Assembly (NCBI RefSeq): GCF_055900595.2
Contig: NZ_CM148325.1
Reading direction: 5' to 3' (one strand)
DNA length: 64,000 nt
The notes under the pieces are model-generated. The model searched no databases and had not been told where the DNA came from. It saw only the letters and a program-made list of their open reading frames with translations. Of this stretch, positions 6,442-51,194 are shown piece by piece (position 1 is the first letter of the stretch; each line of letters begins with the position of its first letter). The position numbers and the translations under genes were made by a program.

Positions 6442-6447
6442 TTTCAC

Positions 6448-14542: not shown

Positions 14543-14571
14543 CACCAGATGGCATATTCAGCCATCTGGTG
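14543..14571. terminator. Perfect 11-bp palindrome between convergent lplT and the DUF4139-like gene
   Basis: caccagatggc-atattca-gccatctggtg, 5 nt after the lplT stop and 5 nt before the opposite-strand stop; no clear U-tract on either side. Confidence 0.4.
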
Positions 14572-14575
14572 AAGA

Positions 14576-16231: not shown

Positions 16232-16339
16232 GGTTATCCTTAACAATGGGCACAGACATTGAAACGCGCGCTGGCGTTGACCAAAAGAGTCTATTGCGCT
16301 TTGTCAGGAAAGATGCGGAGAAAAGTAGTGAATATATTC

Positions 16340-16382
16340 TGAAAAGTGGAGAAAAGAGACGCCTGGTGCAAAACACCAGGCG
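16340..16382 (-). terminator. Rho-independent terminator after tas
   Basis: Stem cgcctggtg/caccaggcg with caaaa loop, 6 nt downstream of the tas stop, followed on the minus strand by a T-rich tract. Confidence 0.6.
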
Positions 16383-16388
16383 AAAGGA

Positions 16389-17429
16389 TCACGGTGCCGG
16401 ATAAGTATAAACCTGATGTACCGCTTCAATTTCAGCTAATACGTCTTCGCTTAACTCCAGATGCAAACTTTCGACGTTAGTTTTCAGCTGCTCCATCGTG
16501 GTTGCGCCCAGCAGAGTGCTGGCAACAAACGGTTGACGGCGTACAAAAGCGAGCGCCATCTGAGCAGGATCCAGGCCATGACGTCTGGCGATATCGACAT
16601 ACGCCGCGACGGCTTTTTGCGTTTGCTCACCGCTATAGCGAGTGAAGCGGCTAAAGAGCGTATTACGTGCGCCAGCAGGTTTTGCACCGTTGAGGTATTT
16701 CCCGGTCAGCGTGCCGAAACCCAGACACGAATAGGCCAGCAGCTCGACCCCTTCATACTGGCTGACTTCTGCCAGACCCACTTCAAAACTGCGGTTTAAC
16801 AGACTGTAGGGGTTCTGAATGGTGACAATACGCGGCAGATCGTGTTTGTCCGCCAGATGCAGGTAGCGCATTACGCCAAATGCAGTTTCGTTCGACACGC
16901 CGATATAACGAATTTTTCCCGCGCGTTGGTACTCTGCCAGTGCGTCCAGCGTATCCAGCAGCGAAACCGCAGGGGCAGAATCTGTCCAGCTATAACCGAG
17001 TTTGCCGAAGCAGTTGGTTGGGCGCTGCGGCCAGTGCACCTGATAAAGATCGAGGTAATCAGTCTGCAGGCGCTTGAGGCTGTCATGCAGAGCTTCGCGG
17101 ATATTCTTCCGATCCAGCGCCTGATCCGGGCGGATGCCCTTGTCATTATTGCGCGACGGTCCGCTCACTTTGGAAGCGATAATTAACTTTTCGCGGCTGC
17201 CATGTTTTGCCAGCCAGTTACCGACGTAGGTTTCGGTTAACCCTTGCGTTTCGGGGCGCGGCGGCACTGGGTACATTTCGGCAACGTCGATAAGGTTAAT
17301 GCCCTGAGCGACGGCATAGTCGAGTTGTGCGTGGGCGTCGGCTTCGCTGTTCTGTTCACCAAACGTCATCGTGCCAAGCCCCAGCGTGCTGACTTCCAGC
17401 GAACTGTGGGGTATACGGTGATATTGCAT
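16389..17429 (-). CDS. tas: NADP(H)-dependent aldo-keto reductase Tas
   Basis: 346 aa; aldo-keto reductase family sequence (MQYHRIPHSSLEVSTLGLGTMTFG...). Confidence 0.92.
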   Translation of the reverse strand: MQYHRIPHSSLEVSTLGLGTMTFGEQNSEADAHAQLDYAVAQGINLIDVAEMYPVPPRPETQGLTETYVGNWLAKHGSREKLIIASKVSGPSRNNDKGIRPDQALDRKNIREALHDSLKRLQTDYLDLYQVHWPQRPTNCFGKLGYSWTDSAPAVSLLDTLDALAEYQRAGKIRYIGVSNETAFGVMRYLHLADKHDLPRIVTIQNPYSLLNRSFEVGLAEVSQYEGVELLAYSCLGFGTLTGKYLNGAKPAGARNTLFSRFTRYSGEQTQKAVAAYVDIARRHGLDPAQMALAFVRRQPFVASTLLGATTMEQLKTNVESLHLELSEDVLAEIEAVHQVYTYPAP

Positions 17430-22988: not shown

Positions 22989-23864
22989 ATGACCAGTAGC
23001 TATCTGCATTTTCCGGAGTTTGATCCGGTCATTTTCTCAATAGGACCCGTAGCGCTTCACTGGTACGGCCTGATGTATCTGGTGGGTTTCATTTTTGCAA
23101 TGTGGCTGGCAACACGTCGGGCGAATCGTCCGGGCAGCGGCTGGACCAAAAATGAAGTTGAAAACTTACTCTATGCGGGCTTCCTCGGCGTCTTCCTCGG
23201 TGGACGTATTGGTTATGTTCTGTTCTACAACTTCCCGCAGTTTATGGCCGATCCGCTGTATCTTTTCCGTGTCTGGGACGGCGGCATGTCCTTCCACGGC
23301 GGCCTGATTGGCGTTATCGTGGTGATGATTATCTTCGCCCGCCGTACTAAACGTTCCTTCTTCCAGGTTTCTGATTTTATCGCACCACTCATTCCGTTTG
23401 GTCTTGGTGCCGGGCGTCTGGGCAACTTTATTAACGGTGAATTGTGGGGCCGCGTTGACCCGAACTTCCCGTTTGCCATGCTGTTCCCCGGCTCCCGTAC
23501 AGAAGATATTTTGCTGCTGCAAACCAACCCGCAGTGGCAATCCATTTTCGACACTTACGGTGTGCTGCCGCGCCACCCATCACAGCTTTACGAGCTGCTG
23601 CTGGAAGGTGTGGTGCTGTTTATTATCCTCAACCTGTATATTCGTAAACCGCGCCCAATGGGAGCTGTCTCAGGTTTGTTCCTGATTGGCTACGGCGCGT
23701 TTCGCATCATTGTTGAGTTTTTCCGCCAGCCCGACGCGCAGTTTACCGGTGCCTGGGTGCAGTACATCAGCATGGGACAAATTCTTTCCATCCCGATGAT
23801 TGTCGCGGGTGTGATCATGATGGTCTGGGCATATCGTCGCAGCCCACAGCAACACGTTTCCTGA
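22989..23864 (+). CDS. lgt: Phosphatidylglycerol-prolipoprotein diacylglyceryl transferase
   Basis: 291 aa; Lgt signature region (HGGLIG) in a polytopic membrane protein; 6 nt upstream of thyA. Confidence 0.95.
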
Positions 23865-23870
23865 GGAACC

Positions 23871-24665
23871 ATGAAACAGTATTTAGAACTGATGCAAAAA
23901 GTGCTCGACGAAGGCACACAGAAAAACGACCGTACCGGAACCGGAACGCTTTCCATTTTTGGTCATCAGATGCGTTTTAACCTGCAGGATGGATTCCCGC
24001 TGGTGACAACCAAACGTTGTCACCTGCGTTCCATCATCCACGAACTGCTGTGGTTCCTGCAGGGCGACACTAACATTGCTTATCTACACGAAAACAATGT
24101 CACCATCTGGGACGAATGGGCCGATGAAAACGGCGACCTCGGGCCAGTGTATGGTAAACAGTGGCGCGCCTGGCCAACGCCGGATGGTCGTCATATTGAC
24201 CAGATCACTACGGTACTGAACCAGCTGAAAAACGACCCGGATTCGCGCCGCATTATTGTTTCAGCGTGGAACGTAGGCGAACTGGATAAAATGGCGCTGG
24301 CACCGTGCCATGCATTCTTCCAGTTCTATGTGGCAGACGGCAAACTCTCTTGCCAGCTTTATCAGCGCTCCTGTGACGTCTTCCTCGGCCTGCCGTTCAA
24401 CATTGCCAGCTACGCGTTACTGGTGCATATGATGGCGCAGCAGTGCGATCTGGAAGTGGGTGATTTTGTCTGGACCGGTGGCGACACGCATCTGTACAGC
24501 AACCATATGGATCAAACTCATCTGCAATTAAGCCGCGAACCGCGTCCGCTGCCGAAGTTGATTATCAAACGTAAACCCGAATCCATCTTCGACTACCGTT
24601 TCGAAGACTTTGAGATTGAAGGCTACGATCCACATCCGGGCATTAAAGCGCCGGTGGCTATCTAA
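23871..24665 (+). CDS. thyA: Thymidylate synthase
   Basis: 264 aa; canonical ThyA sequence with active-site Cys in [13 protein letters not shown]. Confidence 0.97.
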
Positions 24666-36566: not shown

Positions 36567-38392
36567 TGAAATTGCAAAAGCAATTACTGGAAGCTGTGGA
36601 GCACAAACAGCTACGCCCGCTGGATGTGCAATTTGCCCTGACCGTGGCGGGAGATGAACATCCTGCCGTCACCCTCGCGGCAGCCCTGTTAAGCCACGAC
36701 GCCGGGGAAGGGCATGTCTGTTTACCGCTCTCACGACTGGAAAATAACGAGGAGTCACATCCGCTGTTAGCAACCTGCGTCAGCGAAATCGGTGAGTTAC
36801 AAAATTGGGAAGAATGCTTGCTGGCTTCACAAGCGGTCAGCCGGGGAGATGAACCAACGCCGATGATCCTCTGTGGTGATCGTCTTTATTTGAATCGCAT
36901 GTGGTGTAACGAGCGCACAGTGGCACGCTTTTTCAACGAAGTGAATCATGCCATTGAGGTTGATGAAGCTCTACTGGCGCAAACCCTGGACAAACTTTTT
37001 CCAGTAAGCGATGAAATTAACTGGCAAAAAGTGGCGGCGGCAGTGGCGCTGACGCGGCGGATCTCGGTGATTTCCGGCGGCCCTGGCACCGGTAAAACGA
37101 CCACCGTAGCGAAGTTGCTGGCAGCGTTAATTCAAATGGCAGACGGCGAACGCTGCCGTATCCGTCTGGCTGCACCAACGGGTAAAGCTGCCGCGCGCTT
37201 AACCGAATCTCTCGGCAAGGCTTTGCGCCAGTTACCGCTGACCGATGAACAAAAGAAACGCATTCCGGAAGATGCCAGCACTTTGCACCGATTGCTGGGT
37301 GCGCAGCCGGGTAGCCAGCGTTTACGTCATCATGCCGGTAACCCGCTGCATCTTGATGTGCTGGTGGTAGATGAAGCGTCAATGATCGATCTGCCTATGA
37401 TGTCGAGACTGATCGACGCCTTGCCCGATCATGCGCGAGTGATCTTTCTCGGCGATCGTGATCAACTGGCCTCGGTTGAGGCTGGGGCTGTGCTGGGCGA
37501 TATCTGCGCTTATGCCAATGCGGGCTTTACCGCAGAGCGTGCCGGGCAGCTAAGCCGCCTGACGGGAAGCCACGTCCCGGCGGGAAGCGGTACGGAAGCG
37601 GCATCTTTGCGCGACAGTCTCTGCCTGCTGCAAAAAAGCTATCGTTTCGGCAGCGATTCTGGCATTGGTCAGTTAGCTGCGGCGATCAACCGTGGTGATA
37701 AAACGGCAGTGAAAACCGTTTTTCAGCAGGATTTTACTGATATCGAAAAACGGCTTTTACAGAGCGGCGAAGACTATATTGCGATGCTTGAGGAGGCTCT
37801 TGCGGGTTACGGGCGTTATCTGGATCTGCTTCAGGCACGTGCCGAGCCGGATTTAATCATTCAGGCGTTCAATGAGTACCAGCTTTTGTGCGCCCTGCGG
37901 GAAGGGCCGTTTGGCGTGGCTGGACTGAATGAGCGAATTGAGCAGTTTATGCAACAGAAGCGCAAAATTCATCGTCATCCGCACTCTCGTTGGTACGAAG
38001 GCCGACCAGTGATGATTGCCCGTAATGACAGCGCGCTTGGGTTGTTTAATGGCGATATCGGTATTGCGCTGGATCGCGGGCAGGGGACGCGCGTCTGGTT
38101 TGCGATGCCGGATGGCAATATTAAGTCTGTGCAACCGAGCCGCCTGCCAGAACACGAAACCACGTGGGCGATGACGGTACATAAATCGCAGGGATCGGAG
38201 TTTGACCATGCGGCGTTGATTTTACCGAGCCAACGCACGCCAGTTGTAACGCGAGAGCTGGTTTACACTGCGGTGACCCGCGCGCGTCGCCGTCTGTCGT
38301 TGTATGCCGATGAGCGCATATTAAGTGCGGCAATCGCCACTCGTACTGAGCGGCGCAGTGGTCTGGCGGCGTTGTTTAGTTCGCGGGAATAA
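36566..38392 (+). CDS. recD: Exodeoxyribonuclease V alpha subunit
   Basis: 608 aa; Walker [10 protein letters not shown]; start ATG overlaps the recB stop (TAATG). Confidence 0.96.
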
Positions 38393-38401
38393 ACGTGATT
38401 G

Positions 38402-38510
38402 CCTGATGCGATGCATGCGCGTCCTGTCATGCCTCCGGGCATTGCGCATATGCGCATCTGGCGATTTCCGTCGCTTACCCTAAATCCGCCATCAACACCT
38501 TTGATTTGAT
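38402..38510. repeat. Degenerate direct copy of the argA 3' end and flank
   Basis: About 109 bp (cctgatgcgatgcatgcgcg...ccatcaacac) about 85% identical to 38559-38667, which contains the real argA stop. Confidence 0.7.
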
Positions 38511-38546
<36 letters not shown>

Positions 38547-38558
38547 TGAGCGTCAATA

Positions 38559-38667
38559 CCTGATGCGATGCTAGCGTGTTTATCATGCCTCCAGGCATTG
38601 CGCATGTCGCATCTGGCGATTTCCACCACTTACCCCAAATCCGCCATCAACACTTTGGATTTACGCT
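38559..38667. repeat. Second copy of the direct repeat (overlaps the argA 3' coding end)
   Basis: Reverse complement of 38633-38653 encodes the ArgA C-terminus ...VLMADLG followed by the stop codon. Confidence 0.7.
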
Positions 38668-39961
38668 GGTAGTTGTACAACTGCTTTTTGCTCTCGGGCA
38701 GTAAATCAATATCCACCGGGGTAAATCCACGTTCCTGGAACCAGTGAATACTGCGCGTGGTCAGTACAAACAATTTGCTTAATCCGCTTTGCTTCGCCTG
38801 AGCGGCAATGCGCTCCAGCAAAACCTCGCCCCTTGATGAGCTGCGGTAATCCGGGTGAACGGCCACACAGGCCATTTCCCCAATCTTCTCTTCCGGGAAC
38901 GGATAGAGTGCTGCGCAGGCAATAGTCGTGTTATCGCGCTGAATAATAGTGAATTTGTCGATTTCCATCTCCAGTTGCTCGCGAGAACGGCGTACCAGAA
39001 TACCTTGCTGCTCCAGTGGGCGAATCAACTCCAGAATGCCGCCAATATCGTTGATTGTTGCGCGACGAATTTGCTCGGCGCTTTCCATCACAATCTGCGT
39101 ACCGATACCGTCACGTGAGAACAACTCTTGCAACAGCGCGCCATCTTCCTGGTAACTAATTAAATGACAGCGACGTACGCCGCTGCGGCAGGCTTTCACC
39201 GCACCACGCAAAAAGCGCACCGTACCGGAGTTGTAATCGCCTTTCTCTTCCTGAGCTTCTACCCGCGCTTGTGCTTCGTTAGGGAAAAGCTCGGAGACAA
39301 TATCGCCGTCGTCATTAGTGACGCCCTGTGAAGAGCAAAAACCAATCATCTTTTCAGCTTTCAGTTTGATGGCCAGTTGAGTGGCGATCTCTTCCGAGGT
39401 CAGATTAAAGCTCTCGCCAGTGACTGAAACCGCGACCGGCCCCAGCAGCACTATCGCACCGCTGTCCAGTTGACGATGAATCGCATCTTCGTCAATCCGC
39501 CGGATACGCCCGCTATGGCAGTAATCCACACCGTCATCCACGCCCAGCGGCTGGGCAATAATAAAATTGCCACTGACGACGTTGATATGCGCGCCCTGCA
39601 GCGGCGTGTTATTGAGACTCATCGACAGGCGAGCAGTAATGTCCAGTTGCAATGTTCCCGCAGCCTGCTTCACCAGTTCTAGTGTTTTGGCGTCGGTCAC
39701 GCGTATATTTTTGTGATATAGCGGTTCGTGGTGATGCGCTGCCAGATTCGCATCGATCTGCGGGCGCGCTCCATAGACCACGACCAGACGGATGCCGAGG
39801 CTGTGCAGCAACCCGATATCATTAACGATACTGGAGAAATTCTCATGCTCAATGGCTTCACCGCCGAGCATGATGACAAACGTTTTTCCCCGGTGGGTAT
39901 TGATATAAGGAACCGAATGGCGGAATCCCTCGACCAACTCGGTTTTACGTTCCTTCACCAC
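38630..39961 (-). CDS. argA: N-acetylglutamate synthase
   Basis: 443 aa from a GTG start ([33 protein letters not shown]...); amino-acid kinase-like domain plus GNAT domain; the track ORF carries a 24-codon upstream extension. Confidence 0.93.
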
Positions 39962-40191
39962 GGCACACCTCTTTGCATGATTATTCGTAATTATTGTATT
40001 TTTATTCTGTTTTTTCACTGGGTGCAAGTGCAAATTTTACGCATGAGCAACTTTTTTATCAGTAATGCCGTGAATATAAAAAGAATGTTTACCGTTTATT
40101 AGATGACAGATTATGCGTCTTTCGCTAAAGTTTCCGGTCAAATTAGTCGTTTATTTGTTACACAGCTTAGATTTTTTTGCTCGGGAGATGC

Positions 40192-41445
40192 ATGTCGGGA
40201 TCCAACACAGCAATCAGCCGTCGTCGTTTACTGCAAGGCGCGGGTGCCATGTGGCTATTGAGCGTAAGTCAGGTCAGTCTGGCTGCGGTCAGCCAGGTCG
40301 TGGCGGTGCGCGTCTGGCCTGCGTCCAGCTACACCCGTGTGACGGTAGAATCTAATCGTCAGCTGAAATATAAGCAGTTCGCGTTGAGTAACCCTGAACG
40401 CGTGGTGGTGGATATCGAAGATGTAAACCTGAACTCAGTGCTCAAGGGGATGGCGGCACAAATTCGTGCTGATGACCCGTTCATCAAGTCGGCGCGCGTC
40501 GGGCAGTTTGACCCGCAAACCGTGCGGATGGTTTTTGAGTTAAAGCAAAACGTAAAACCGCAGCTGTTTGCCCTTGCTCCGGTCGCCGGGTTTAAAGAGC
40601 GTCTGGTGATGGATCTCTATCCTGCCAATGCTCAGGACATGCAGGACCCGCTGCTGGCGCTGCTGGAGGATTACAATAAAGGCGATCTCGAAAAGCAGGT
40701 GCCGCCTGCGCAGAGTGGCCCGCAGCCAGGCAAAGCAGGGCGCGATCGTCCGATTGTCATTATGCTTGACCCTGGCCATGGCGGCGAAGACTCCGGTGCG
40801 GTGGGGAAATACAAAACGCGTGAAAAAGATGTGGTATTGCAAATTGCCCGCCGTTTGCGCTCTCTGATTGAGAAAGAGGGCAATATGAAAGTTTACATGA
40901 CCCGTAATGAAGACATCTTCATTCCGTTGCAAGTGCGCGTAGCAAAAGCACAGAAACAGCGTGCTGACTTGTTTGTCTCTATTCATGCCGATGCCTTTAC
41001 CAGTCGCCAGCCGAGCGGTTCCTCTGTGTTTGCGCTCTCTACCAAAGGTGCAACCAGTACCGCGGCAAAATATCTGGCGCAAACTCAGAACGCCTCGGAC
41101 TTGATTGGTGGCGTGAGTAAGAGCGGCGACCGTTATGTCGACCATACTATGTTCGATATGGTGCAGTCGCTGACCATTGCCGACAGTCTGAAGTTTGGTA
41201 AAGCTGTGTTGAATAAGCTCGGTAAAATCAACAAGCTGCATAAAAATCAGGTTGAACAAGCCGGGTTTGCCGTGCTGAAAGCGCCTGATATACCCTCCAT
41301 TTTGGTCGAAACGGCGTTTATCAGTAACGTTGAGGAAGAACGTAAACTGAAAACGGCAACCTTCCAGCAGGAAGTTGCGGAATCAATCCTCGCAGGGATA
41401 AAAGCGTATTTTGCCGATGGGGCGACGCTGGCGAGAAGGGGATAA
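40192..41445 (+). CDS. amiC: N-acetylmuramoyl-L-alanine amidase AmiC
   Basis: 417 aa from ATG at 40192 ([23 protein letters not shown]... Tat-type RR signal); gggaga RBS; Amidase_3 catalytic domain. Confidence 0.94.
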
Positions 41446-41613
41446 TGTTTTTATTTATTCAATGAATTTATATTTCGTTGAATAGATAATATTTACCTGA
41501 ATATTAGACGTTGGTTTTGTGACTGATGTCGAATATTTGAATGTCGGCTTGAAAAATAAGCCGACCATCTCTTTAATTAAGCACAATTCCGTGTAATGTA
41601 TATGCATTAGTTA

Positions 41614-41647
41614 ATCATCTTGTAACTGTTAAATCAGGCAAGGCAAT
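41614..41647 (+). promoter_or_regulatory. RAT (ribonucleic antiterminator) element in the operon leader
   Basis: tcatcTTGTaACTGtTAAAtCAGGCAAggCa resembles the SacY/LicT/BglG RAT consensus GGATTGTTACTGATAAAGCAGGCAAAACC; its 3' part overlaps the left arm of the following terminator. Confidence 0.6.
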
Positions 41648-41691
41648 GTTTGAAGTAATTATTACTTCTGACGTGCCTTGCCTTTTTTTTT
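41638..41691 (+). terminator. Leader rho-independent terminator overlapping the RAT
   Basis: Outer stem ggcaaggca/tgccttgcc (41638-41646 and 41674-41682) with an inner stem gaagtaat/attacttc, followed by T9 (41683-41691). Confidence 0.7.
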
Positions 41692-41702
41692 GGAGCTATG
41701 GA

Positions 41703-42527
41703 ATGATCATCGAAAAAGTCATGAACAATAATTGTGTACAGGCATCGATGAATGGACAGGAGGTTATCATTTCTGGGCCTGGCGTCGGTTACAACAAAAA
41801 ATATGGAATGTCGGTCCCTGAGCATCCGGCTAACCGGATTTTTTATGTCAGAAATGAACAAAAAAATAAACTCTACAAATTGATTGAACATGTGGATATT
41901 GAGTATGTTTTTGTTGCCGAAAAAATAGTGCAATATGCGGAGAACAATCTCGAAAAAAATCTCAATCCATCGCTACTATTGATTCTTGCTGATCATATTT
42001 CGAATGCAATATCCCGAGTCGCTTCAGGCATACAAATTAATAATGTTTTCCTTGATGAAATCAAAGCGTTGTACAAAGCAGAGTATGCGATAAGTCGCGA
42101 TGCATTAACTATCATTAATGAGCAATTCAGCGTTCAACTTCCTGATGATGAGATTGGTTTTATAGCATTGCATATTTTAAATAATTATGAAAATTCAGTT
42201 GATTATGAATCAGTACGGATTATTGAGTTGTCGCAAATAATCACGGGGCTTATTGAAGTTGTTTATAACAGAAAGGTGGACAGAAGTTCATTTAATTATT
42301 CCAGGTTCATGATACACCTTAAATATTTTTCAAGTCGCGTATTATGCAATGAAAAAATAAAACAGAAAGATATTGGTGATCTCTATGAACAGTTTCTTGA
42401 GAAAGACATTCTGTTACAGCGCGCAATTCATGAAATTGAAAGGTATTTGTACGCCACTTTTAAATATGAATTGATTTTGGAAGAAAAACTATATCTCTCT
42501 ATTCGCACCAAAGTATTAATGGACTGA
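41703..42527 (+). CDS. BglG/LicT/SacY-family transcriptional antiterminator (CAT domain plus two PRDs)
   Basis: 274 aa from ATG at 41703 (MIIEKVMNNNCVQASMNGQEVIISGPGVGYNKK = CAT RNA-binding domain); conserved His in PRD-like segments (IGFIALHILNN, RFMIHLKYFSS); ggag RBS 7 nt upstream. The track start at 41646 lies inside the terminator hairpin. Confidence 0.8.
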   Translation: MIIEKVMNNNCVQASMNGQEVIISGPGVGYNKKYGMSVPEHPANRIFYVRNEQKNKLYKLIEHVDIEYVFVAEKIVQYAENNLEKNLNPSLLLILADHISNAISRVASGIQINNVFLDEIKALYKAEYAISRDALTIINEQFSVQLPDDEIGFIALHILNNYENSVDYESVRIIELSQIITGLIEVVYNRKVDRSSFNYSRFMIHLKYFSSRVLCNEKIKQKDIGDLYEQFLEKDILLQRAIHEIERYLYATFKYELILEEKLYLSIRTKVLMD

Positions 42528-42558
42528 TTATATATAACATTTATATGAGATAACCCGC

Positions 42559-44139
42559 ATGAAACAAAAGAAAGCCTGGAGTTTTTTTCAGAGCCTGGGA
42601 AAGGCATTTATGTATCCCATCGCTCTGCTAAGTGTATGTGGCATGATGTTAGGGCTAGGAAGTGGTTTAGCCAGCGATGATATGGCAAAATTAATTCCAC
42701 TACTGGCTATTCCCGTAATTAAAACCATTCTTGATTTTATTGTTAGCCTTGGTTTGTTTGCCTTTGTCAATTTACCTGTATTGTTTGCGATAGCTATACC
42801 TCTGGGGTTATTAAAAGAGAAAGAGGATAAAGCCTATGGCGCTTTTTCTGGCTTAATTGGTTTCATGGCGATGCATCTGGGAACGAACTTTTATCTTAAA
42901 CAACATGACTTATTGGTCGCTGCTGATCAAATGTCGACACATGGGCAAACCATTATTCTGGGAATCCAGTCCTACAATACCAGTGTGTTGGGTGGGATTA
43001 TAGCAGGATTATTAGTCGCCAGTATGTATAAAAAGATCGTTAACTTACGTATTCCTGAATCATTAGGATTTTATAGTGGCCCACGCCTGGTGCCTATTAT
43101 TACACTGATTGTGATGAGCGGATTTGGTCTGATCATCCCTTTTATCTGGCCGCCATTTTTCAATCTTTTCATGCTCATTGGCCACTGGATTTCAACTTCC
43201 GGTCCTGTTGGCTATTTTTTCTATGCAGTCGCCGAACGCGTGACGATACCTTTTGGTTTAAATCACCTGGTGACGTCAGTTTTCCGCTTTACCCCCATCG
43301 GCGGATCGGCAGTGATCGGCGGAGAAGAGTATTATGGCACCCTGAACATGTTTATGGCGTACGTCAAAGAGAATGCGGTCATTCCGCTGGATTTGGCGGG
43401 GAAAATGGAACAGGGCAAACTGATGATTCAGTATGGTCTGGCTGGTGCCGCGCTGGCGATGTATCGCACTGCTCATGCTCAAAACAGAAAAGCTATCAAA
43501 GCATTGCTTATTTCCGGGGTGCTTACAGTCATTATTGGCGGCGTCAGCGAACCGATTGAGTTTCTGTTCTTATTTGTCAGTCCACTGCTATTTGTCTTCC
43601 ATGCTTTTATGAATGGATTCGCCAACATGGTCTTGCCATATATGGGCGTGAAGATGGGATTTACTGGCGATCTGATTCAATTTATTAGCTTTGGCGTATT
43701 GCGTGGCACAAGAACAGGTTGGCCAATAGCGGTGTGTGTCGAAGTGGCCTATTTCTTTATTTATTACTTTGTGTTCCGTTGGACTATTCTCAAATTTAAC
43801 CTGATGACGGTAGGCCGTGAAGAGTCCAGTCCTGTCACGCTGAACGCTCATGAGGATACGGCTATAGCGGATATCCCACCGCTTGATAAATCAGAGCTGC
43901 AAGCAGCGGAGCAGATGGTTAAGGCACTTGGTGGTAAAGAGAATATTAAATCCCTGGATAATTGCGTAACTCGTTTACGTTTAACAATCGCAGATATGGG
44001 ATTGATTGACGAGGCAGCAATAAAAAGAGCTGGCGGAATTGCGGTTGTTAAACTTGATCAAAATACCCTACAAGTCATTATCGGTACTAAAGTCATCGCC
44101 TTGCGTCGGGATATGGATAACTACATGGGGATATGCTGA
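42559..44139 (+). CDS. PTS glucose-family EIICB permease (no EIIA domain)
   Basis: 526 aa; about 10 TM segments (EIIC) then a C-terminal EIIB domain with phosphorylatable Cys in NCVTRLRLTIADMGL...AVVKLDQNTLQVIIGTK. Confidence 0.85.
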   Translation: MKQKKAWSFFQSLGKAFMYPIALLSVCGMMLGLGSGLASDDMAKLIPLLAIPVIKTILDFIVSLGLFAFVNLPVLFAIAIPLGLLKEKEDKAYGAFSGLIGFMAMHLGTNFYLKQHDLLVAADQMSTHGQTIILGIQSYNTSVLGGIIAGLLVASMYKKIVNLRIPESLGFYSGPRLVPIITLIVMSGFGLIIPFIWPPFFNLFMLIGHWISTSGPVGYFFYAVAERVTIPFGLNHLVTSVFRFTPIGGSAVIGGEEYYGTLNMFMAYVKENAVIPLDLAGKMEQGKLMIQYGLAGAALAMYRTAHAQNRKAIKALLISGVLTVIIGGVSEPIEFLFLFVSPLLFVFHAFMNGFANMVLPYMGVKMGFTGDLIQFISFGVLRGTRTGWPIAVCVEVAYFFIYYFVFRWTILKFNLMTVGREESSPVTLNAHEDTAIADIPPLDKSELQAAEQMVKALGGKENIKSLDNCVTRLRLTIADMGLIDEAAIKRAGGIAVVKLDQNTLQVIIGTKVIALRRDMDNYMGIC

Positions 44140-45314
44140 TGGATGTTTTTAATACTCCTATTTCCCGCAAAGGAACATATTGTACCCAATGGGACTTTTG
44201 CGAGGACAGATTTGGTGTAAAAGATGTATTACCATTCTCTATTTCAGATATGGATCTTCCGATACCGGAAGCTATCATCAGGGCATTAAAAAAACGTCTG
44301 GAACACCCGATTTTAGGGTACAGCCGTTGGCAGCATGATGACTATCTGAATGCGATAGTCAATTGGTATCATCAACAATATAAAACTGAAATCAAACCAG
44401 AATGGATCACCTATAGCCCAAGCGTGATGTACTCCATTGCTAAAGCAATAGAGTTATTGACATCGCATGGTGATAATATTCTCGTTTTTACACCTGTCTA
44501 TAATGCATTTTTTGATATAATTAAACATAGTGAGAGAAATATTCTGACAGCCTCTTTGATTATAAAAAATGAGGGGGGCTACGCTATCAATTGGCAAGAT
44601 TTTGATCTTAAGATTCAAAGCGCAAAGATGGTGTTATTATGTAATCCTCATAACCCGACAGGAACCGTCTGGTCGGAAGAAGATCTGCATAAAATCGCTG
44701 CAAGCTGTGCAAGACATAATGTCTGGTTATGTTCAGATGAAATTCACAGTGATTTTGTTTTTAATCGTAGCTTTACATCTGCGCTTAAAATAAAAAAAGA
44801 AAAAGTAGTGGTGTTTAATTCGATATCGAAGACATTTAATGTTCCCGCGCTAACAGGATCGTATATGATTTCAACTGACGATAATTTTAATCATAAGTTC
44901 AGAACGATATCAAGATATCGCGATTTTGTAAACTCCCCATCCGTACTGAATATAATTGCAACTATTATTGCCTATAACGAATGTGAGGGATGGTTAAAGT
45001 CATTAAAGGCACATATTGCCTCTAACATTCAATTCACCCAGCAGTATCTGAACGAAAATACTCCAGAATTGATCGTAAGGCCAGCTGATGGTTGCTATTT
45101 TTCGTGGATAGATTGCTCTGCTATTGGTTATCCATTTGATGAATTCTACAGTCGATTAATTCATGAAGGCAAAGTGGGCATTATGGCGGGGAATGTCTAT
45201 GGAACGGAGGGGGAGGGCTACCTTCGTCTGAACCTGGCCTGCGGTCGAGAAAAATTATATATGGGGCTTACGCGTCTTGCGAGTGTAATTAAAAATATTA
45301 ATCAAGGAAAATAA
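44133..45314 (+). CDS. PLP-dependent aminotransferase class I/II, MalY/PatB-like C-S lyase
   Basis: 393 aa; NPHNPTG motif and Schiff-base Lys in NSISKTFN; start overlaps the PTS gene stop (ATGCTGATGGA). Confidence 0.8.
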   Translation: MLMDVFNTPISRKGTYCTQWDFCEDRFGVKDVLPFSISDMDLPIPEAIIRALKKRLEHPILGYSRWQHDDYLNAIVNWYHQQYKTEIKPEWITYSPSVMYSIAKAIELLTSHGDNILVFTPVYNAFFDIIKHSERNILTASLIIKNEGGYAINWQDFDLKIQSAKMVLLCNPHNPTGTVWSEEDLHKIAASCARHNVWLCSDEIHSDFVFNRSFTSALKIKKEKVVVFNSISKTFNVPALTGSYMISTDDNFNHKFRTISRYRDFVNSPSVLNIIATIIAYNECEGWLKSLKAHIASNIQFTQQYLNENTPELIVRPADGCYFSWIDCSAIGYPFDEFYSRLIHEGKVGIMAGNVYGTEGEGYLRLNLACGREKLYMGLTRLASVIKNINQGK

Positions 45315-45316
45315 AA

Positions 45317-45913
45317 ATGAACAGCACGGATCTTATCCATCTCATTAAACATTTTATGCGTAACGAACATAAAGCAGTTGAAGAAGTTATTGATTCCCCC
45401 CTTTCGGAGGTTGCAAATTTAATTAAAGTATTACAGTCTTGTCAGGGGAAAGTTGTTTTTATTGGTGTCGGTAAGTCCGGTATTATTGCCCGAAAACTCG
45501 CCGCAACATTTGCCAGCACTGGAACTCCCTCGTTTTTTGTTCACGGTACTGAAGCCGTACACGGCGATCTTGGGATGGTGGCGAAAGATGATGTTGTTAT
45601 TCTTATTTCAAACAGTGGTGAGACGACAGAAATCCTGGCAACACTACCTAGTCTGAAAAAAATGGGTAATTATTTGATCTCCTTTACCCGCAGTCATCGC
45701 TCATCGCTTGCGATAAGTTGTGATTTATCCGTTGAAATTCCCGTAAAAAGTGAGGCGGATAATTTAGGTTTAGCGCCGTCATGCTCATCAACAGTCGTTC
45801 TGGTTGTTGGTGATGCGGTGGCGCTTGCGCTCTCCGAATTGAAAAAGTTTACTCGTGCTGATTTCGGCTTATATCATCCAGGAGGTGCGCTCGGTATTAA
45901 AGCAAACTCATAA
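45317..45913 (+). CDS. SIS-domain sugar-phosphate isomerase (KdsD/GutQ-like catalytic domain without CBS domains)
   Basis: 198 aa; VVFIGVGKSGIIARKLAATFASTGTPSFFVHGTEAVHGDLGMV...ISNSGET...HPGGALG closely resembles the SIS core of arabinose-5-phosphate isomerases; no C-terminal CBS pair. Confidence 0.8.
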   Translation: MNSTDLIHLIKHFMRNEHKAVEEVIDSPLSEVANLIKVLQSCQGKVVFIGVGKSGIIARKLAATFASTGTPSFFVHGTEAVHGDLGMVAKDDVVILISNSGETTEILATLPSLKKMGNYLISFTRSHRSSLAISCDLSVEIPVKSEADNLGLAPSCSSTVVLVVGDAVALALSELKKFTRADFGLYHPGGALGIKANS

Positions 45914-45983
45914 TTTTAGAATATAAAACAGTAACCGGTCACGCCATCTTTTGGGGTGGCGTTCATTGATGTGAGTGTCAGCT

Positions 45984-46931
45984 ATGAAAAACGTTCTGGT
46001 CACCGTTCCCAGCTTTTCAGCGCGTTGTGTTTCTGCCAGCAAGCTGCTAAGAGAAAATCATTTTAACCTTATTATCAAGAATAATGTGGAGCATCTGGTT
46101 AAATCAGAATCCACAGTATTACGAGAATCTATTTGCGCAGTCATTGCCGGAAAAGATTGTTATCAAGCGGATACGTTATCGCGACTACCAGGAGTGAAAA
46201 TAATATCGAGATTCGGGACAGGGATTGATAATATTGATCTTCATACGGCTCGACAATCAGGTATTGTGGTCAATAATGCTGTTGGGATTAATTCAAATGC
46301 AGTCGCGGAATTTATCATTGGTCTTATTTTTGCGAGCATGAGAAATATCCCCGGTAGCTATCATGCGATGCAAAATGGTTATTGGGGCGAGTCGCATGGC
46401 TGCGAGTTACAAGGTAAACGTATTGGCCTGCTTGGCTACGGCAATATTGGCAAAACACTGGCGAAAAGGTTATCTGGTTTTGATGTTGAGCTTTTAGCTT
46501 TTGACAAACAACCCGATTTCCAGGCCGCAGGCAAAGATGGAGTTCAGTTCGTATCAATTGAAGATATCTTTATGCAGTCTCATGTCATCATCGTTCTTTT
46601 GCCATTTTCTCCTGAGCTGGAGAACTTCATTAGTCATAAATATTTGTCGATGATGCGCAATGGTGCTCTTATCATCAACGCCGCAAGGGGAAAGTTGCTG
46701 GATGAGGGGGCTTTACTTCAGGTAATTGAAGAACGAAATGTTTTTGCAGCACTGGATGTGTTTAGCTCTGAACCGCTAGCGCAATTTAGCCCATTGCTAC
46801 ATGCCAGGAATATCATTACAACGCCGCATATTGCGGCCGCCACCGTTGAGTCATACCAGCAAACCGGGATATACGTTGCCAGGTCGATAATAGATTTCTT
46901 TGCAGGAAGGGAGATAAAAAACGTGCTGTGA
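45984..46931 (+). CDS. D-isomer-specific 2-hydroxyacid dehydrogenase family, NAD(P)-binding
   Basis: 315 aa from ATG at 45984 (MKNVLVTVPSF...; the track ORF starts 3 codons earlier at GTG); GLLGYGNIGKTLAKRL nucleotide-binding motif; catalytic-region motifs NAARGKLLDE and TPHIAAAT. Confidence 0.8.
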   Translation: MKNVLVTVPSFSARCVSASKLLRENHFNLIIKNNVEHLVKSESTVLRESICAVIAGKDCYQADTLSRLPGVKIISRFGTGIDNIDLHTARQSGIVVNNAVGINSNAVAEFIIGLIFASMRNIPGSYHAMQNGYWGESHGCELQGKRIGLLGYGNIGKTLAKRLSGFDVELLAFDKQPDFQAAGKDGVQFVSIEDIFMQSHVIIVLLPFSPELENFISHKYLSMMRNGALIINAARGKLLDEGALLQVIEERNVFAALDVFSSEPLAQFSPLLHARNIITTPHIAAATVESYQQTGIYVARSIIDFFAGREIKNVL

Positions 46932-46957
46932 GTTCAGCTAAGGAAGATTTCAGGTAC

Positions 46958-46991
46958 AAAAAAACCGCAATCTGTGAAACACATTGCGGTT
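46958..46991 (-). terminator. Terminator of the tRNA-fMet operon (bidirectional hairpin)
   Basis: Stem aaccgcaat/attgcggtt with 11-nt loop; on the minus strand it is followed by a U7 tract (the A-run 46958-46964), 19 nt downstream of the tRNA 3' end. Confidence 0.65.
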
Positions 46992-47009
46992 TATCAGCAT
47001 CATAAGTGT

Positions 47010-47086
<77 letters not shown>

Positions 47087-47119
47087 TCACCGTACTGCTT
47101 TACTTCATCAAATTTTGAT

Positions 47120-47196
<77 letters not shown>

Positions 47197-47229
47197 TCAC
47201 CGTACTGCTTTACTTCATCAAATTTTAAT

Positions 47230-47306
<77 letters not shown>

Positions 47307-47514: not shown

Positions 47515-48612
47515 ATGAAAGGACGTTGGGTAAAGTACCTTCTTATGGGCACGGTTGTGGCAATGCTTGCCGCCTGCTCTTCCAAACCAACCGATCGCGG
47601 ACAGCAATATAAAGACGGGAAATTTACCCAGCCTTTCTCTCTGGTAAACCAGCCAGATGCCGTTGGCGCGCCAATTAACGCCGGTGATTTTGCCGAGCAA
47701 ATTAACCATATCCGTACTTCGTCACCGCGTCTGTATGGCAACCAGAGTAATGTTTATAATGCGGTGCAGGAGTGGCTACGCGCAGGCGGTGATACCCGCA
47801 ATATGCGTCAGTTCGGCATTGACGCCTGGCAGATGGAAGGTGCCGACAACTATGGCAACGTGCAGTTTACGGGCTATTACACGCCTGTCATTCAGGCGCG
47901 CCATACCCGTCAGGGCGAGTTCCAGTATCCTATTTACCGTATGCCGCCAAAACGTGGTCGTCTGCCGTCTCGTGCGGAGATCTACGCGGGAGCATTGAGC
48001 GATAAATACATCCTCGCTTACAGCAACTCTCTGATGGATAACTTCATTATGGATGTGCAGGGTAGCGGGTATATCGATTTTGGTGATGGCAGTCCGCTTA
48101 ACTTCTTCAGCTATGCCGGAAAGAATGGTCATGCCTATCGCAGTATTGGTAAGGTGCTGATTGACCGTGGCGAAGTGAAAAAAGAAGATATGTCGATGCA
48201 GGCGATTCGTCACTGGGGTGAAACACACAGTGAAGCCGAGGTTCGCGAGCTGCTGGAACAGAACCCGTCTTTCGTCTTCTTTAAACCGCAATCTTTTGCT
48301 CCGGTGAAAGGGGCAAGTGCGGTGCCGCTGGTTGGTCGCGCTTCAGTTGCGTCCGATCGTTCCATTATCCCACCTGGTACAACCTTACTGGCAGAAGTGC
48401 CGCTGCTGGATAATAACGGCAAATTTAACGGTCAGTACGAACTACGGCTGATGGTGGCGCTGGATGTCGGTGGTGCAATCAAAGGCCAACACTTCGATAT
48501 TTATCAAGGTATCGGGCCGGAAGCCGGACACCGCGCAGGTTGGTACAACCACTATGGACGTGTTTGGGTGCTGAAAACCGCCCCGGGCGCAGGTAACGTC
48601 TTTAGCGGCTGA
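47515..48612 (+). CDS. mltA: Membrane-bound lytic murein transglycosylase A
   Basis: 365 aa from ATG at 47515 (MKGRWVKYLLMGTVVAMLAACSSKP..., lipobox LAAC); the track ORF 47233-48612 is an in-frame extension running through tRNA copy 3. Confidence 0.93.
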   Translation: MKGRWVKYLLMGTVVAMLAACSSKPTDRGQQYKDGKFTQPFSLVNQPDAVGAPINAGDFAEQINHIRTSSPRLYGNQSNVYNAVQEWLRAGGDTRNMRQFGIDAWQMEGADNYGNVQFTGYYTPVIQARHTRQGEFQYPIYRMPPKRGRLPSRAEIYAGALSDKYILAYSNSLMDNFIMDVQGSGYIDFGDGSPLNFFSYAGKNGHAYRSIGKVLIDRGEVKKEDMSMQAIRHWGETHSEAEVRELLEQNPSFVFFKPQSFAPVKGASAVPLVGRASVASDRSIIPPGTTLLAEVPLLDNNGKFNGQYELRLMVALDVGGAIKGQHFDIYQGIGPEAGHRAGWYNHYGRVWVLKTAPGAGNVFSG

Positions 48613-48647
48613 TGTGTTATTCTGTATACCGTTTTGACGGATACGAC

Positions 48648-48674
48648 AGGGTGAGGGATAACCTCGCCCTTTTT
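48648..48674 (+). terminator. Rho-independent terminator after mltA
   Basis: Stem agggtgagg/cctcgccct (one G-U pair) with 5-nt loop followed by a T-run. Confidence 0.55.
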
Positions 48675-48688
48675 AATTCTGAGGTGCT

Positions 48689-49495
48689 ATGTCTGTGGTA
48701 ATTAGTGATGCATGGCGTCAGCGTTTTGGTGGCACTGCGCGTCTGTATGGTGAAAAAGCGTTGCAACTGTTTGCTGATGCGCATATTTGTGTGGTCGGTA
48801 TCGGTGGCGTTGGTTCCTGGGCGGCGGAAGCGTTGGCGCGCACGGGTATTGGCGCAATCACACTTATCGATATGGATGATGTGTGCGTCACTAATACCAA
48901 TCGGCAAATTCACGCGCTGCGCGATAACGTCGGGCTGGCTAAAGCGGAAGTCATGGCCGAACGTATTCGCCAGATTAACCCAGAGTGCCGTGTAACGGTG
49001 GTGGATGACTTCGTAACGGTGGATAACGTAGCACAATATATGAGTGCCGGTTATTCGTACGTGATTGATGCCATTGATAGTGTGCGACCCAAGGCGGCGC
49101 TGATTGCTTATTGTCGTCGCAATAAAATCCCTCTGGTCACGACTGGTGGTGCTGGTGGGCAGATTGATCCGACGCAGATTCAGGTTACCGATCTGGCTAA
49201 AACGATTCAGGACCCGCTGGCGGCGAAGTTGCGCGAGCGCCTGAAAAGCGATTTTGGTGTAGTGAAAAACAGCAAAGGTAAGCTCGGCGTGGATTGCGTG
49301 TTCTCTACCGAAGCGCTGGTGTACCCGCAGTCAGACGGTACGGTGTGCGCGATGAAAGCCACGGCAGAAGGGCCGAAGCGGATGGATTGTGCATCTGGAT
49401 TTGGCGCGGCGACGATGGTGACCGCCACCTTTGGTTTTGTTGCGGTTTCTCATGCGTTGAAGAAGATGATGGCGAAAGCTGCGCGTCAGGGGTAA
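48689..49495 (+). CDS. tcdA: tRNA threonylcarbamoyladenosine dehydratase (E1-like)
   Basis: 268 aa; ThiF/MoeB-type nucleotide-binding fold (CVVGIGGVGSWAAEALARTGIG). Confidence 0.9.
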   Translation: MSVVISDAWRQRFGGTARLYGEKALQLFADAHICVVGIGGVGSWAAEALARTGIGAITLIDMDDVCVTNTNRQIHALRDNVGLAKAEVMAERIRQINPECRVTVVDDFVTVDNVAQYMSAGYSYVIDAIDSVRPKAALIAYCRRNKIPLVTTGGAGGQIDPTQIQVTDLAKTIQDPLAAKLRERLKSDFGVVKNSKGKLGVDCVFSTEALVYPQSDGTVCAMKATAEGPKRMDCASGFGAATMVTATFGFVAVSHALKKMMAKAARQG

Positions 49496-49500
49496 ACAAT

Positions 49501-49541
49501 CAGGTCGGATGCGACGTGAACGTCTTATCCGACCTGGTTTT
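49501..49541 (+). terminator. Terminator between convergent tcdA and csdE
   Basis: 10-bp stem caggtcggat/atccgacctg with structured loop followed by gttttg. Confidence 0.55.
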
Positions 49542-49545
49542 GCGC

Positions 49546-49989
49546 TTAACCCTGCTTCGCCGCCGCGATAATCGCCTCACTTAACGCATTCAACCCCTGG
49601 CTGCGTGAGGCGCTAAGCTGCGCACGCAATCCCAGCTCATCAAACAATGCCAGCGGCGACTGAGCCTGCAATTCGGCGGCGGTTTTCCCCTCAACGGCAG
49701 TCAACAACACTGCCAGCAGGCCGCGCACAATGCGTCCTTCGCTGTCGCCAAAGAAATGCATCGTGCCGTTTTCAGCCACGGTATACCCCAGCCAGACGCG
49801 GTTTTCGCATCCGGCAATCTCTTTAGCCTGCGCTTTTAACTCGTCTGGCAAAGCAGGAAGCTGTTTCCCCAACATAATCAGCTGGCGATATTTGTCTTCC
49901 CATTGCGTCAGTGGCGCGAAAGTATCGCGTAACGTCTCTATGGTAACGGTTGTGCCGAACGGATGTCCGGCGAATTGCGGGTTTGTCAT
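49546..49989 (-). CDS. csdE: Cysteine desulfurase sulfur-acceptor protein (SufE-like)
   Basis: 147 aa; SufE family; start overlaps the csdA stop. Confidence 0.9.
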
Positions 49990-51194
49990 TAATCCACCAA
50001 TAATTCCAGCGCGCGGTCAACGGCATTCACCAGCGCATCCACATCACTCTTTGTATTATATGGCGCAAAAGAGGCGCGCAGTGTGCCGGTTACGCCTAAT
50101 TCTGCCAATAGCGGCTGAGCGCAATGCTGCCCGGCCCGCAGGGCAATGCCGTACTCCGCCAGCAGCGTCACCATATCGCTTTGATGAACGCCAGCAAAAT
50201 CAAAGGCTAGCAGGCTGGAATCCTGGCTGCGGAATGAACGAAAGCCTGGACGTTTCGTCAGCGCATCTTCCGCCAGCGTTGCTAAGCTACGGCTCCAGCT
50301 TTCGGCCTGGTTGATATCGTAATCTGCCAGCCATTCCAGCGCCGCGCTTAATCCTATGACACCAGCGACATTTGGCGTTCCTGCTTCCAGTTTCCACGGC
50401 GCAGATTGAGTGATGAAGCCGTCAAAACTCACTTCGTGAACCATTTTGCCGCCGCCCAGCCAGGGCGACATTGCTTCCAGCAGTTCTGGTTTGCCGTAAA
50501 GTACGCCTATCCCTGTCGGGCCATACAGTTTGTGACCAGAGAAAGCGTAAAAATCAATATCCAGTTGCTGAACATCTGCGGGGAAATGCACCGCCCCCTG
50601 AGCACCATCAACCATCACCACCATCCCGGCTGAATGAGCAAAGGTAATCGCTCGTGCCAGATCCGGGCAACCGCCAGTGACGTTAGACATCTGGCCCAAC
50701 GCCAGAATCCGACTATGGGGAGTAATCAGTTCAGGCAACAAATCGATATCTGGCAACCGCTGCGCATTAAGCGGCAATTTCACCACTTTGGCTCCGGTTT
50801 GTTGGGCGACCATCAGCCAGGGGACGAGGTTGGCGTGATGCTCTGCCACACTGACAATAATTTCATCGCCCGGTTGCAGACGCGGACGGGCATAGCATTG
50901 CGCCACCATGTTGATGGATTCAGTGGTGCCGCGCGTCCAGACGATAGTTTTGTCATCTGGTGCATTCAGTAATAGCGCCACTTTTTCCCGTGCAGCTTCG
51001 TAACGCGCGGTCAGGCGTTGGGCCTCGGCAAACTGGCTACGATGGACGTTTCCGGCGCTCAGGCTGTAAAACTGTCGGGTTGCTTCAACCACGGCTTCAG
51101 GTTTAAGCGCGGTCGCGGCACTGTCGAGATAGACGCCCGCATCCTGTAGCGCGGGAAACTGGGCGCGAAATTGCGCGGGATTAAAAACGTTCAT
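49989..51194 (-). CDS. csdA: Cysteine desulfurase CsdA (class V aminotransferase)
   Basis: 401 aa from ATG at 51194 ([16 protein letters not shown]...); PLP-binding motif around [10 protein letters not shown]; the track ORF has a 12-codon extension. Confidence 0.93.

Follow-up and report, generated by a model that had tools for sequence, protein, structure and literature searches.

A predicted antiterminator-controlled phosphotransferase operon at the Escherichia coli metV locus, matching pafR-pafP and probably of old Firmicute origin

Some Escherichia coli chromosomes carry an AT-rich block of five genes between the core gene amiC and a cluster of initiator tRNA genes. Is such a block a recently gained islet of uropathogens, and what would its products do? 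We addressed these questions in a 64,000-nucleotide stretch of NCBI RefSeq assembly GCF_055900595.2 (contig NZ_CM148325.1), hereafter the window, in which a first reading of the letters alone (the sequence-only reading) had placed a horizontally acquired carbohydrate operon at 41446-46957. Our analysis indicates, with a probability of roughly three in four, that the window carries a copy of pafR-pafP, an operon already known from the E. coli metV locus, in a form that holds the operon alone, and that this operon encodes an antiterminator-controlled phosphotransferase system (PTS) route of old Firmicute origin.

A known operon at the metV site

The gap between amiC and the tRNA-fMet genes is filled by five intact, co-directional open reading frames (ORFs) on the + strand, and these ORFs, together with family calls from NCBIfam models that were each judged against the model's own cut-off, confirm the gene content and operon arrangement that had first been described. 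In order, the genes encode a PRD antiterminator (the PafR orthologue; 41703-42527, +, 274 aa), a MalX-like EIICB of the glucose family (the PafP orthologue; 42559-44139, +), a C-S lyase of PatB/MalY type (44139-45314, +, 391 aa), a SIS-only protein of KpsF/GutQ type (the orthologue of CFT073 c3406; 45317-45913, +, 198 aa) and a short D-2-hydroxyacid dehydrogenase resembling 3-phosphoglycerate dehydrogenases (PGDHs; 45984-46931, +, 315 aa). CFT073 carries the identical set in the identical order beside amiC, and its proteins are 92.7-98.3% identical to those of the window (97.8% for the antiterminator and 98.3% for EIICB). The CFT073 SIS protein is identical to the chain of PDB entries 5UQI and 5VHU, which the window protein matches at 192 of 198 residues (97%). 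Read upward along the CFT073 coordinates, the genes run dehydrogenase, SIS, lyase, EIICB, antiterminator and then amiC, so that the SIS gene comes second, which fits c3406. The earlier suspicion that the two strains share this locus was therefore correct.

On this sequence evidence, the window operon corresponds to the pafR-pafP operon (c3405-c3409/10), whose locus is known under three rarely connected names: c3405-c3410, pafRP and the "malX" marker of pathogenicity islands (PAIs). The primary literature is Lloyd 2007/2009, Mosberg 2011 and Baum 2014 for the CFT073 metV operon, and Johnson & Stell 2000 for the malX marker. Bryant 2010 placed c3405-c3410 within PAI-CFT073-metV and found the operon in all four genomes of uropathogenic E. 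coli (UPEC) then available (PMC2831201). pafR has since been described as a regulator on the metV island, and a list of mutants attenuated in mouse urinary tract infection (UTI) includes pafRP and pafP (PMC8882828). According to the summary of Baum et al. 2014 in one citing paper, PafR is expressed in vivo only and not in urine, and PafR is reported there to raise capsule gene expression (PMC4468546); in the accounts given by citing papers, it also alters the expression of many virulence, biofilm and motility genes (PMC8882828, PMC4468546). To this record the present analysis adds the anatomy of the leader RNA, the paralogy with malXY and the pairing of those genes across phyla, a division of the island into two modules, evidence that the operon is an ancient resident, and the mapping of the marker primers together with their likely failure on diverged alleles.

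The borders of the operon are sharp. The window and K-12 part exactly at the stop codon of amiC (40192-41445, +) and rejoin at the tRNA 3' end; amiC ends with TGA followed by its own terminator in K-12, and with TAA followed by the AT-rich leader in the window. In K-12 MG1655 the amiC-metV spacer measures 73 bp and contains no gene, in keeping with the account of K-12 in the sequence-only reading. The start that it had given for the interval, 41446, stands as well, whereas its end does not: the non-K-12 segment extends to 47009 and takes in a hairpin at 46962-46992 (an inverted repeat, strand unset) that lies between the dehydrogenase gene and the tRNA genes and abuts the first tRNA-fMet at 47010. 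Because the A-run on the + side of this hairpin reads as a T-run on the - strand, it serves mainly as the terminator of the tRNA operon, and K-12 has a different hairpin in its place. Base composition follows the same borders. The GC content is 0.407 in the operon vs 0.514 in the remainder of the window, and in sliding windows of 500 nt it drops to 0.33-0.46 over the islet, as against 0.50-0.57 over the flanks, so that the claim of a marked AT-richness was upheld.

Distribution, island structure and age

Low GC, absence from K-12 and a tRNA neighbour are what one would expect of a recent, uropathogen-specific islet that integrated at metV and brought a novel pathway absent from commensal E. 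coli, and the same reading could draw on the presence of the operon in every UPEC genome of the first comparison (PMC2831201) and on the reported attenuation of its mutants in mice (PMC8882828). Two hallmarks of islands are present, atypical GC (0.41 vs 0.51) and variable presence among strains (31%). The distribution, however, contradicts the specificity for uropathogens that the sequence-only reading had implied. The operon occurs in 1688 of 5426 complete E. coli genomes (31%), and its carriers include Nissle 1917, an enteropathogenic (EPEC) O127:H6 strain and a bovine O111:H8 strain.

The structure of the island points in the same direction. In 949 of the 1688 carriers the operon is followed by a junction to a type VI secretion system (T6SS) of the UTI89 kind, and at least 595 genomes have the operon-only form that abuts the tRNA genes, as in the window. 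The 14-nt sequence TGGTTGCGGGGGCC, which duplicates the tRNA 3' end, is present in UTI89 solely at the junction between the operon and the T6SS genes. A tRNA-end repeat in this position makes the T6SS look like a separate metV insertion into a chromosome that already held the operon. Thus the metV island of CFT073 and UTI89 consists of two nested modules with separate histories, of which the window has the operon alone, and the T6SS part of the CFT073 island looks like the later insertion. For the window operon itself, inspection of the ORF list and a repeat search revealed no integrase ORF, no insertion sequence (IS) element or IS ends, and no direct repeats at the borders; the tRNA repeat of UTI89 flanks the T6SS module only. 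In some strains, G12 (NZ_CP129272.1) among them, the window-type operon either has an insertion of the IS21-family element ISEc12 or is incompletely recorded, and truncated SIS proteins under the labels Shigella flexneri and Klebsiella pneumoniae were also seen.

Comparison with other genera argues that the acquisition is ancient. The operon occupies the same position beside amiC in Escherichia whittamii and Atlantibacter hermannii, and its divergence tracks that of its flanks: identity between the window and Atlantibacter is 68-77% for the operon vs 76-81% for amiC, argA and mltA. Within E. coli, operon alleles differ by 2-12% between lineages. The window is ~97% identical to K-12 overall, and this figure falls to 93-95% beside the islet (38000-41445 and 48000-50000, comprising amiC, argA, tcdA and csdE), while the AmiC protein is identical across lineages despite the local divergence; the variable amiC-metV site is thus surrounded by a local peak of synonymous divergence. 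The claim of horizontal acquisition therefore holds in one part only, in that AT-richness supports a foreign origin, whereas the shared site and the flank-like divergence in other genera speak against a recent gain. Together with the synteny, the distribution largely refutes a recent uropathogen-specific islet, and we regard that reading as very unlikely. The metV operon is better described as an ancient resident than as a recent pathogenicity island.

The likely source of the operon is indicated by its composition. A four-gene core (antiterminator, EIICB, lyase and SIS) is found in E. coli, E. whittamii, Atlantibacter, two Citrobacter species, an Enterobacter sp. and Enterococcus termitis, the only organism among the Firmicute SIS homologues examined in which we found it. 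The dehydrogenase gene is present in E. coli, E. whittamii, Atlantibacter and Citrobacter only; it is absent from the four-gene version of Enterobacter sp., and in E. termitis, where the contig ends directly after the SIS gene, it could not show. The operon is richer in AT than any of its enterobacterial hosts, whereas its GC content in E. termitis (0.368) matches that of the genome (0.362), which suggests that transfer ran from Firmicutes to Enterobacteriaceae. The operon probably derives from a single old transfer from a low-GC Firmicute into the Enterobacteriaceae, followed by descent, loss (as in K-12) and allelic recombination.

The same locus underlies a marker that is widely typed under another name. 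The primers RPAi-f and RPAi-r, whose sequences we confirmed in PMC4654559 and PMC12058657, are labelled "PAI" or "malX" in those papers and are assigned to GenBank AF003742 with a product of 930 bp. Both match CFT073 perfectly, 922 bp apart (23198-24119 of the CFT073 stretch), and have no other place in the 49-kb CFT073 stretch that was checked; the amplicon covers the antiterminator gene at its 3' end and the EIICB gene over its 5' half. Since the primers land in the first two genes of the operon, the classic malX marker of ExPEC, the E. coli that are pathogenic outside the intestine, is this metV operon. Carrier genomes have a median of one place for the amplicon and a maximum of two, and amplicon identity to CFT073 is at least 99% in 968 of the 1688 carriers, 95-99% in 359 and 90-95% in 361. 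The primers have 0 and 1 mismatches in UTI89. In the window they have two (forward) and five (reverse), and for this reason the window allele is probably malX-negative by PCR, as are, probably, other diverged alleles of its kind; strains E200086 and Z0117EC0005 also have an allele of the window type. Among the open-access papers searched we found none that names malX together with metV. In a genome study of ST131, the malX marker was equated with CFT073 c2013 and scored "+" in every strain compared (PMC3203889), a result that fits a core malX gene. With the marker read as core c2013 there and the PCR marker lying in the metV operon, in silico "malX" typing may be unreliable.

Two observations concern the surroundings of the operon. 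Among the three initiator tRNA-Met genes of the right flank (metV/W/Z equivalents; 47010-47306, -), the middle one (47120-47196, -) has a C-to-T change at gene position 16, in the D-loop region, whereas its two neighbours and the three genes of K-12 all share one sequence. Farther away, ~1.85 kb between lplT and tas (14545-16393) is absent from K-12 and contains an ORF (14576-16246, -) for a predicted lipoprotein of 556 aa that scores 207 bits, above the cut-off, with the model of the MuiA family of "mucoidy inhibitors" (TIGR02231).

Leader RNA and the predicted sugar route

What the operon might do is suggested first by its leader (41446-41702, +; 31% GC, with a small hairpin at 41543-41565). 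The leader contains a target resembling the ribonucleic antiterminator (RAT), CTTGTAACTGTTAAATCAGGCAAG (41619-41642, +), which was identified by its pattern and by the conservation of its pairing and which can form a 4-bp lower stem, an internal loop, a 3-bp upper stem and a 6-nt loop. The degenerate RAT pattern has one match in the 64-kb window, as against 0.01 expected by chance, and the element is closely similar to the consensus RAT of sacB, licS and bgl. Folding also detected an intrinsic terminator (41636-41691, +), composed of a hairpin at 41636-41682 and T9 at 41683-41691 (dG -30.3 kcal/mol, z = -4.2; 0 of 200 shuffles equal it), which a simple promoter/terminator scan had overlooked. 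Because the 3' half of the RAT overlaps the 5' arm of the terminator, the two hairpins are mutually exclusive. The ORF start called mechanically at 41646 crosses the terminator and is an artefact; the true start is the ATG at 41703.

Both elements are conserved. In an alignment of seven leaders (the window, three other E. coli alleles, Atlantibacter, Citrobacter and Enterobacter), the RAT pairs in 100% of cells, with one compensatory change from G-C to A-U at window positions 41628/41635, and the terminator structure is kept, with compensatory changes in five pairs. E. termitis has a near-identical RAT and terminator upstream of its antiterminator gene and a second RAT before its EIICB gene. 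An Rfam scan returned no family for the leader element, the three tRNAs being the sole matches. The best genome match to the window, E200086, has an islet of 5511 rather than 5512 bases and a leader identity of 99.6%, and is otherwise 100% identical; the one-base difference lies in the leader, and we suspect the terminator T-run at 41683-41691.

The product of the first gene suits this leader. An N-terminal CAT RNA-binding domain precedes two PRDs (Pfam CAT_RBD and PRD are annotated on orthologues), the LicT model of NCBIfam is matched over residues 1-268, and the protein aligns to the LicT PRD structures 1TLV and 1H99 and to the CAT-PRD1 structure 6TWR, although all scores lie below the equivalog cut-offs (LicT 228 vs 300, GlcT 179 vs 320 and BglG 105 vs 322 bits). 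Equivalents of the regulatory LicT histidines H100, H159 and H207 are kept, and that of H269 is Arg (in LSIRT), a replacement common to the Escherichia, Atlantibacter and Citrobacter versions; Enterobacter sp. and E. termitis have His. The UTI89 antiterminator (6258-7070 of the UTI89 stretch) is four residues shorter, having lost an ENNL that the window protein and all further orthologues in the alignment possess, and the CFT073 protein is likewise full length at 274 aa. As a whole, the layout appears to be that of a substrate-induced, self-regulated antitermination operon, RNA binding and control by phosphorylation being ascribed to it from the family.

A cryptic or decaying remnant without function in the window strain would be compatible with an AT-rich leader that has no clear promoter, with the operon's reported silence in vitro and in urine, as relayed in a citing paper (PMC4468546), and with the strains that have an IS21 insertion or truncated copies and the partial Shigella proteins. 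Against decay, the five ORFs are full length and match their orthologues end to end, the leader RNA elements are conserved, and identity is higher for the EIICB protein (98.3% to CFT073) than for its DNA (93.7% to UTI89), which indicates purifying selection. We find such a remnant scarcely credible.

The second and third genes form a recognizable pair. Residues 6-521 of the EIICB match IIBC models, with an EIIC domain and a C-terminal EIIB that has the phosphorylatable Cys; among NCBIfam matches we found no EIIA domain, the NagE IIABC model being matched over its IIBC part only. The protein is 42% identical to K-12 MalX, its EIIB motif NCVTRLRL aligns with NCITRLRL of MalX, and its nearest structures are those of PtsG EIICB, but it scores below the cut-offs of the MalX models (TIGR02004, 536 vs 632 bits; PRK10110, 526 vs 665). 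The lyase exceeds the cut-off of TIGR04350 (367 vs 340 bits), is 36% identical to K-12 MalY and has MalY (1D2F) as its best PDB match; the lysine that would bind pyridoxal phosphate (PLP), K231 in SISK231TF, and D200, H203, N172 and R363 are invariant in the alignment with MalY. The lyase is thus a predicted PLP-dependent beta C-S lyase of the MalY/PatB family, and the pair appears by sequence to be a paralogue of K-12 malX-malY. This answers the earlier statement that the enzyme set matches no canonical E. coli pathway, which also overlooked two precedents: bglG, for an antiterminator in a sugar PTS operon, and gutQ, a distal gene of a PTS sugar operon like the SIS gene of the window, for an arabinose-5-phosphate isomerase in such a setting. 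A scan for the lyase in species-representative genomes gave 80 loci, and in ~55 of them, distributed over Enterobacterales, Bacillales, Lactobacillales, Actinobacteria and Alphaproteobacteria, the gene immediately upstream encodes an EIICB. Conservation of the pair across phyla argues for a metabolic link, beyond the MalT-directed role known in E. coli, and to our knowledge the physiological substrate of malXY itself was never settled.

The fourth product is predicted to be an arabinose-5-phosphate isomerase of SIS-only form. Its residues 39-173 align with the KdsD SIS domain (2XHZ) and retain the GxGKSG, HGDLG and SNSGE motifs, and the protein ends at residue 198, without the C-terminal pair of CBS domains; the TIGR00393 model is matched over positions 1-152 of 268 (192 bits, under the cut-off of 204). 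By its title, the 2011 work of Mosberg describes an arabinose 5-phosphate isomerase of CFT073 as unique, and this orthologue reportedly interconverts arabinose 5-phosphate (A5P) and ribulose 5-phosphate (Ru5P) and is said to be able to replace KdsD or GutQ. SIS-only homologues of 197-208 aa (52-60% identity) are abundant in Firmicutes, where they adjoin sugar kinases, DHDPS-family and KDPG-type aldolases and transporters, mostly as a gat-type PTS with aldolases or as a kinase with MFS or TRAP transporters, a setting that fits a catabolic role from A5P to Ru5P. In Lactiplantibacillus, Companilactobacillus and Enterococcus, such genes lie beside a gat-type PTS, both types of aldolase and a PRD activator, a layout that would suit a candidate pathway for catabolism of a 3-deoxy-ulosonic acid, such as 3-deoxy-D-manno-octulosonic acid (Kdo), via A5P.

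The fifth product, a putative short D-2-hydroxyacid dehydrogenase, is closest to 3-phosphoglycerate dehydrogenases that have no ACT domain: it scores 210 bits against a cut-off of 454 for TIGR01327, has no ACT or ASB region in its 315 aa, and finds its best PDB match in 1WWK, a short PGDH of 307 aa. This affinity, together with the isomerase named in the title of Mosberg 2011 and the rise in capsule genes that a citing paper attributes to PafR, could be taken to mean that the operon is anabolic, with the isomerase boosting A5P for the Kdo of lipopolysaccharide (LPS) or capsule in the course of infection, and the dehydrogenase and PLP enzyme acting like SerA/SerC or PdxB/SerC in the synthesis of a precursor of amino-acid type. 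A PTS importer under an antiterminator is, however, a mark of catabolism; the PLP enzyme groups with the lyases (above the TIGR04350 cut-off) and not with SerC; the dehydrogenase is dispensable in four-gene versions; and synthesis of LPS and capsule is normal in strains that lack the operon. We consider an anabolic supply role highly improbable.

Our preferred model for the antiterminator-controlled PTS route is as follows. Transcription would start in the AT-rich leader and stop at the intrinsic terminator just upstream of the antiterminator gene. During transport of the cognate sugar, the EIICB would no longer phosphorylate the PRD antiterminator, as the anatomy and the BglG/LicT family suggest, and the unphosphorylated protein would then bind the RAT hairpin and allow read-through of all five genes. 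The EIICB would import and phosphorylate a carbohydrate of glucoside type, presumably with phosphate from Crr since it has no EIIA domain of its own. Processing of the product would then fall to the lyase and the SIS-only isomerase, joined in five-gene operons by the dehydrogenase. The later steps can be proposed only tentatively: the lyase might release an amino-acid-type aglycone from the phosphorylated sugar by beta-elimination, the dehydrogenase might act on a (phospho)acid of 2-oxo or 2-hydroxy type, and the isomerase might channel a pentose phosphate into the pentose-phosphate pathway. The hypothetical four-step pathway of the sequence-only reading is plausible as chemistry; that reading had missed the control by RAT and terminator and the identity of the locus with the malX marker. 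The conserved RAT/terminator leader would provide a ready-made reporter for discovery of the inducer of an operon whose mutants are reported to be attenuated in mouse UTI.

A more specific and quite speculative version, to which we give little weight, is that the core of EIICB, MalY-type lyase and SIS-only isomerase under antitermination constitutes an unrecognised PTS route for a host-derived conjugate of sugar and amino acid, for example of the S- or O-glycosyl cysteine or serine type. In such a scheme the lyase may free the amino-acid part by beta-elimination, and the pentose phosphate may go from A5P to Ru5P. If true, it would explain both the 30-year-old puzzle of the MalX-MalY pairing and the tracking of extraintestinal virulence by the "malX" marker.

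The operon might instead be mainly a regulatory module, in which the permease senses a host sugar, the MalY-like protein regulates by binding other proteins, A5P is a signal and global effects of PafR cause the virulence phenotypes. The lyase is 36% identical to MalY, whose regulatory role on MalT needs no catalysis, and A5P signalling has been proposed for GutQ. PafR is reported, in secondary accounts, to shift virulence, biofilm and motility genes and to be expressed in vivo only, and the enzyme set makes no obvious complete pathway. On the other side, the EIICB-lyase pair is conserved across phyla without MalT, the catalytic residues of lyase and isomerase are conserved, the Firmicute SIS-only homologues lie in plainly catabolic clusters, and a RAT in the operon's own leader is the classic layout of a substrate-induced catabolic PTS. 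A mainly regulatory function therefore seems unlikely, if still worth keeping in mind.

Several points weigh against our model of an old, antiterminator-controlled PTS route. The interaction of antiterminator and RAT, the dependence on Crr and all catalysis except that of the isomerase are ascribed from protein families, and nothing in the analysis points to one substrate. K-12 MalY is a regulator of MalT besides being an enzyme and we know of no clear catabolic role for GutQ, so the lyase and isomerase may not be pathway enzymes. Because the EIICB, antiterminator, SIS protein and dehydrogenase fall below NCBIfam cut-offs, they are relatives of MalX, LicT, KpsF/GutQ and SerA rather than orthologues, and the Arg at the LicT H269 equivalent means that HPr-dependent control may differ. 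The simple promoter/terminator scan found no consensus sigma-70 promoter on the + strand of the 31%-GC leader. Finally, Citrobacter has the operon at a different locus, which implies some lateral movement and leaves strict vertical descent unproven.

Comparison with known systems

The closest known counterparts of the window operon are the metV operons of CFT073 and UTI89, from which it differs in its surroundings. There the T6SS module separates the operon from metV, the full island measuring ~32 kb, whereas in the window the operon abuts tRNA-fMet directly. The window allele is ~6% diverged in DNA from that of UTI89, and the RAT and terminator of the leader are conserved in that closely related copy.

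In its control, the operon resembles the BglG/SacY/LicT systems (E. coli bglGFB, B. subtilis licT-bglPH and glcT-ptsG): its regulator shares their CAT domain and two PRDs, its RAT hairpin overlaps the 5' arm of the terminator as theirs do, and, as with bglG, the regulator gene itself lies downstream of the terminator that it would control. It departs from LicT in the replacement of the second PRD2 histidine (H269) by Arg, and its scores are below the LicT and GlcT equivalog cut-offs.

Its isomerase invites comparison with two groups of SIS proteins. With GutQ, KpsF and KdsD it shares a catalytic domain that aligns well to KdsD, but those proteins have ~320 aa and the window isomerase, at 198 aa, has no CBS pair. 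MurP-MurQ likewise couples a glucose-family EIICB to a SIS-domain enzyme acting on a phosphorylated sugar, and for its substrate, N-acetylmuramic acid, a D-2-hydroxyacid would be the by-product. Unlike MurQ, the window SIS protein matches MurQ models weakly (E ~1e-7), and its orthologue is an isomerase. Recycling of muropeptides in the manner of MurP/MurQ, hinted at by the neighbouring amiC and mltA genes, was accordingly set aside, as the match between the SIS protein and MurQ is marginal and the EIICB matches MurP in the EIIB domain only; the adjacency of the operon to amiC looks coincidental.

A further parallel is the malI-malXY locus of K-12. Control in the window appears to be exerted by a PRD antiterminator and a RAT instead of the LacI-type repressor MalI, the operon adds a SIS isomerase and a dehydrogenase, and its EIICB lies under the MalX cut-off. 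K-12 MalY is an antagonist of MalT, and no evidence ties the window lyase to MalT. Common to both loci, however, is the arrangement at their core, in which an EIICB gene is followed directly by a gene of the MalY family with its catalytic motifs conserved.

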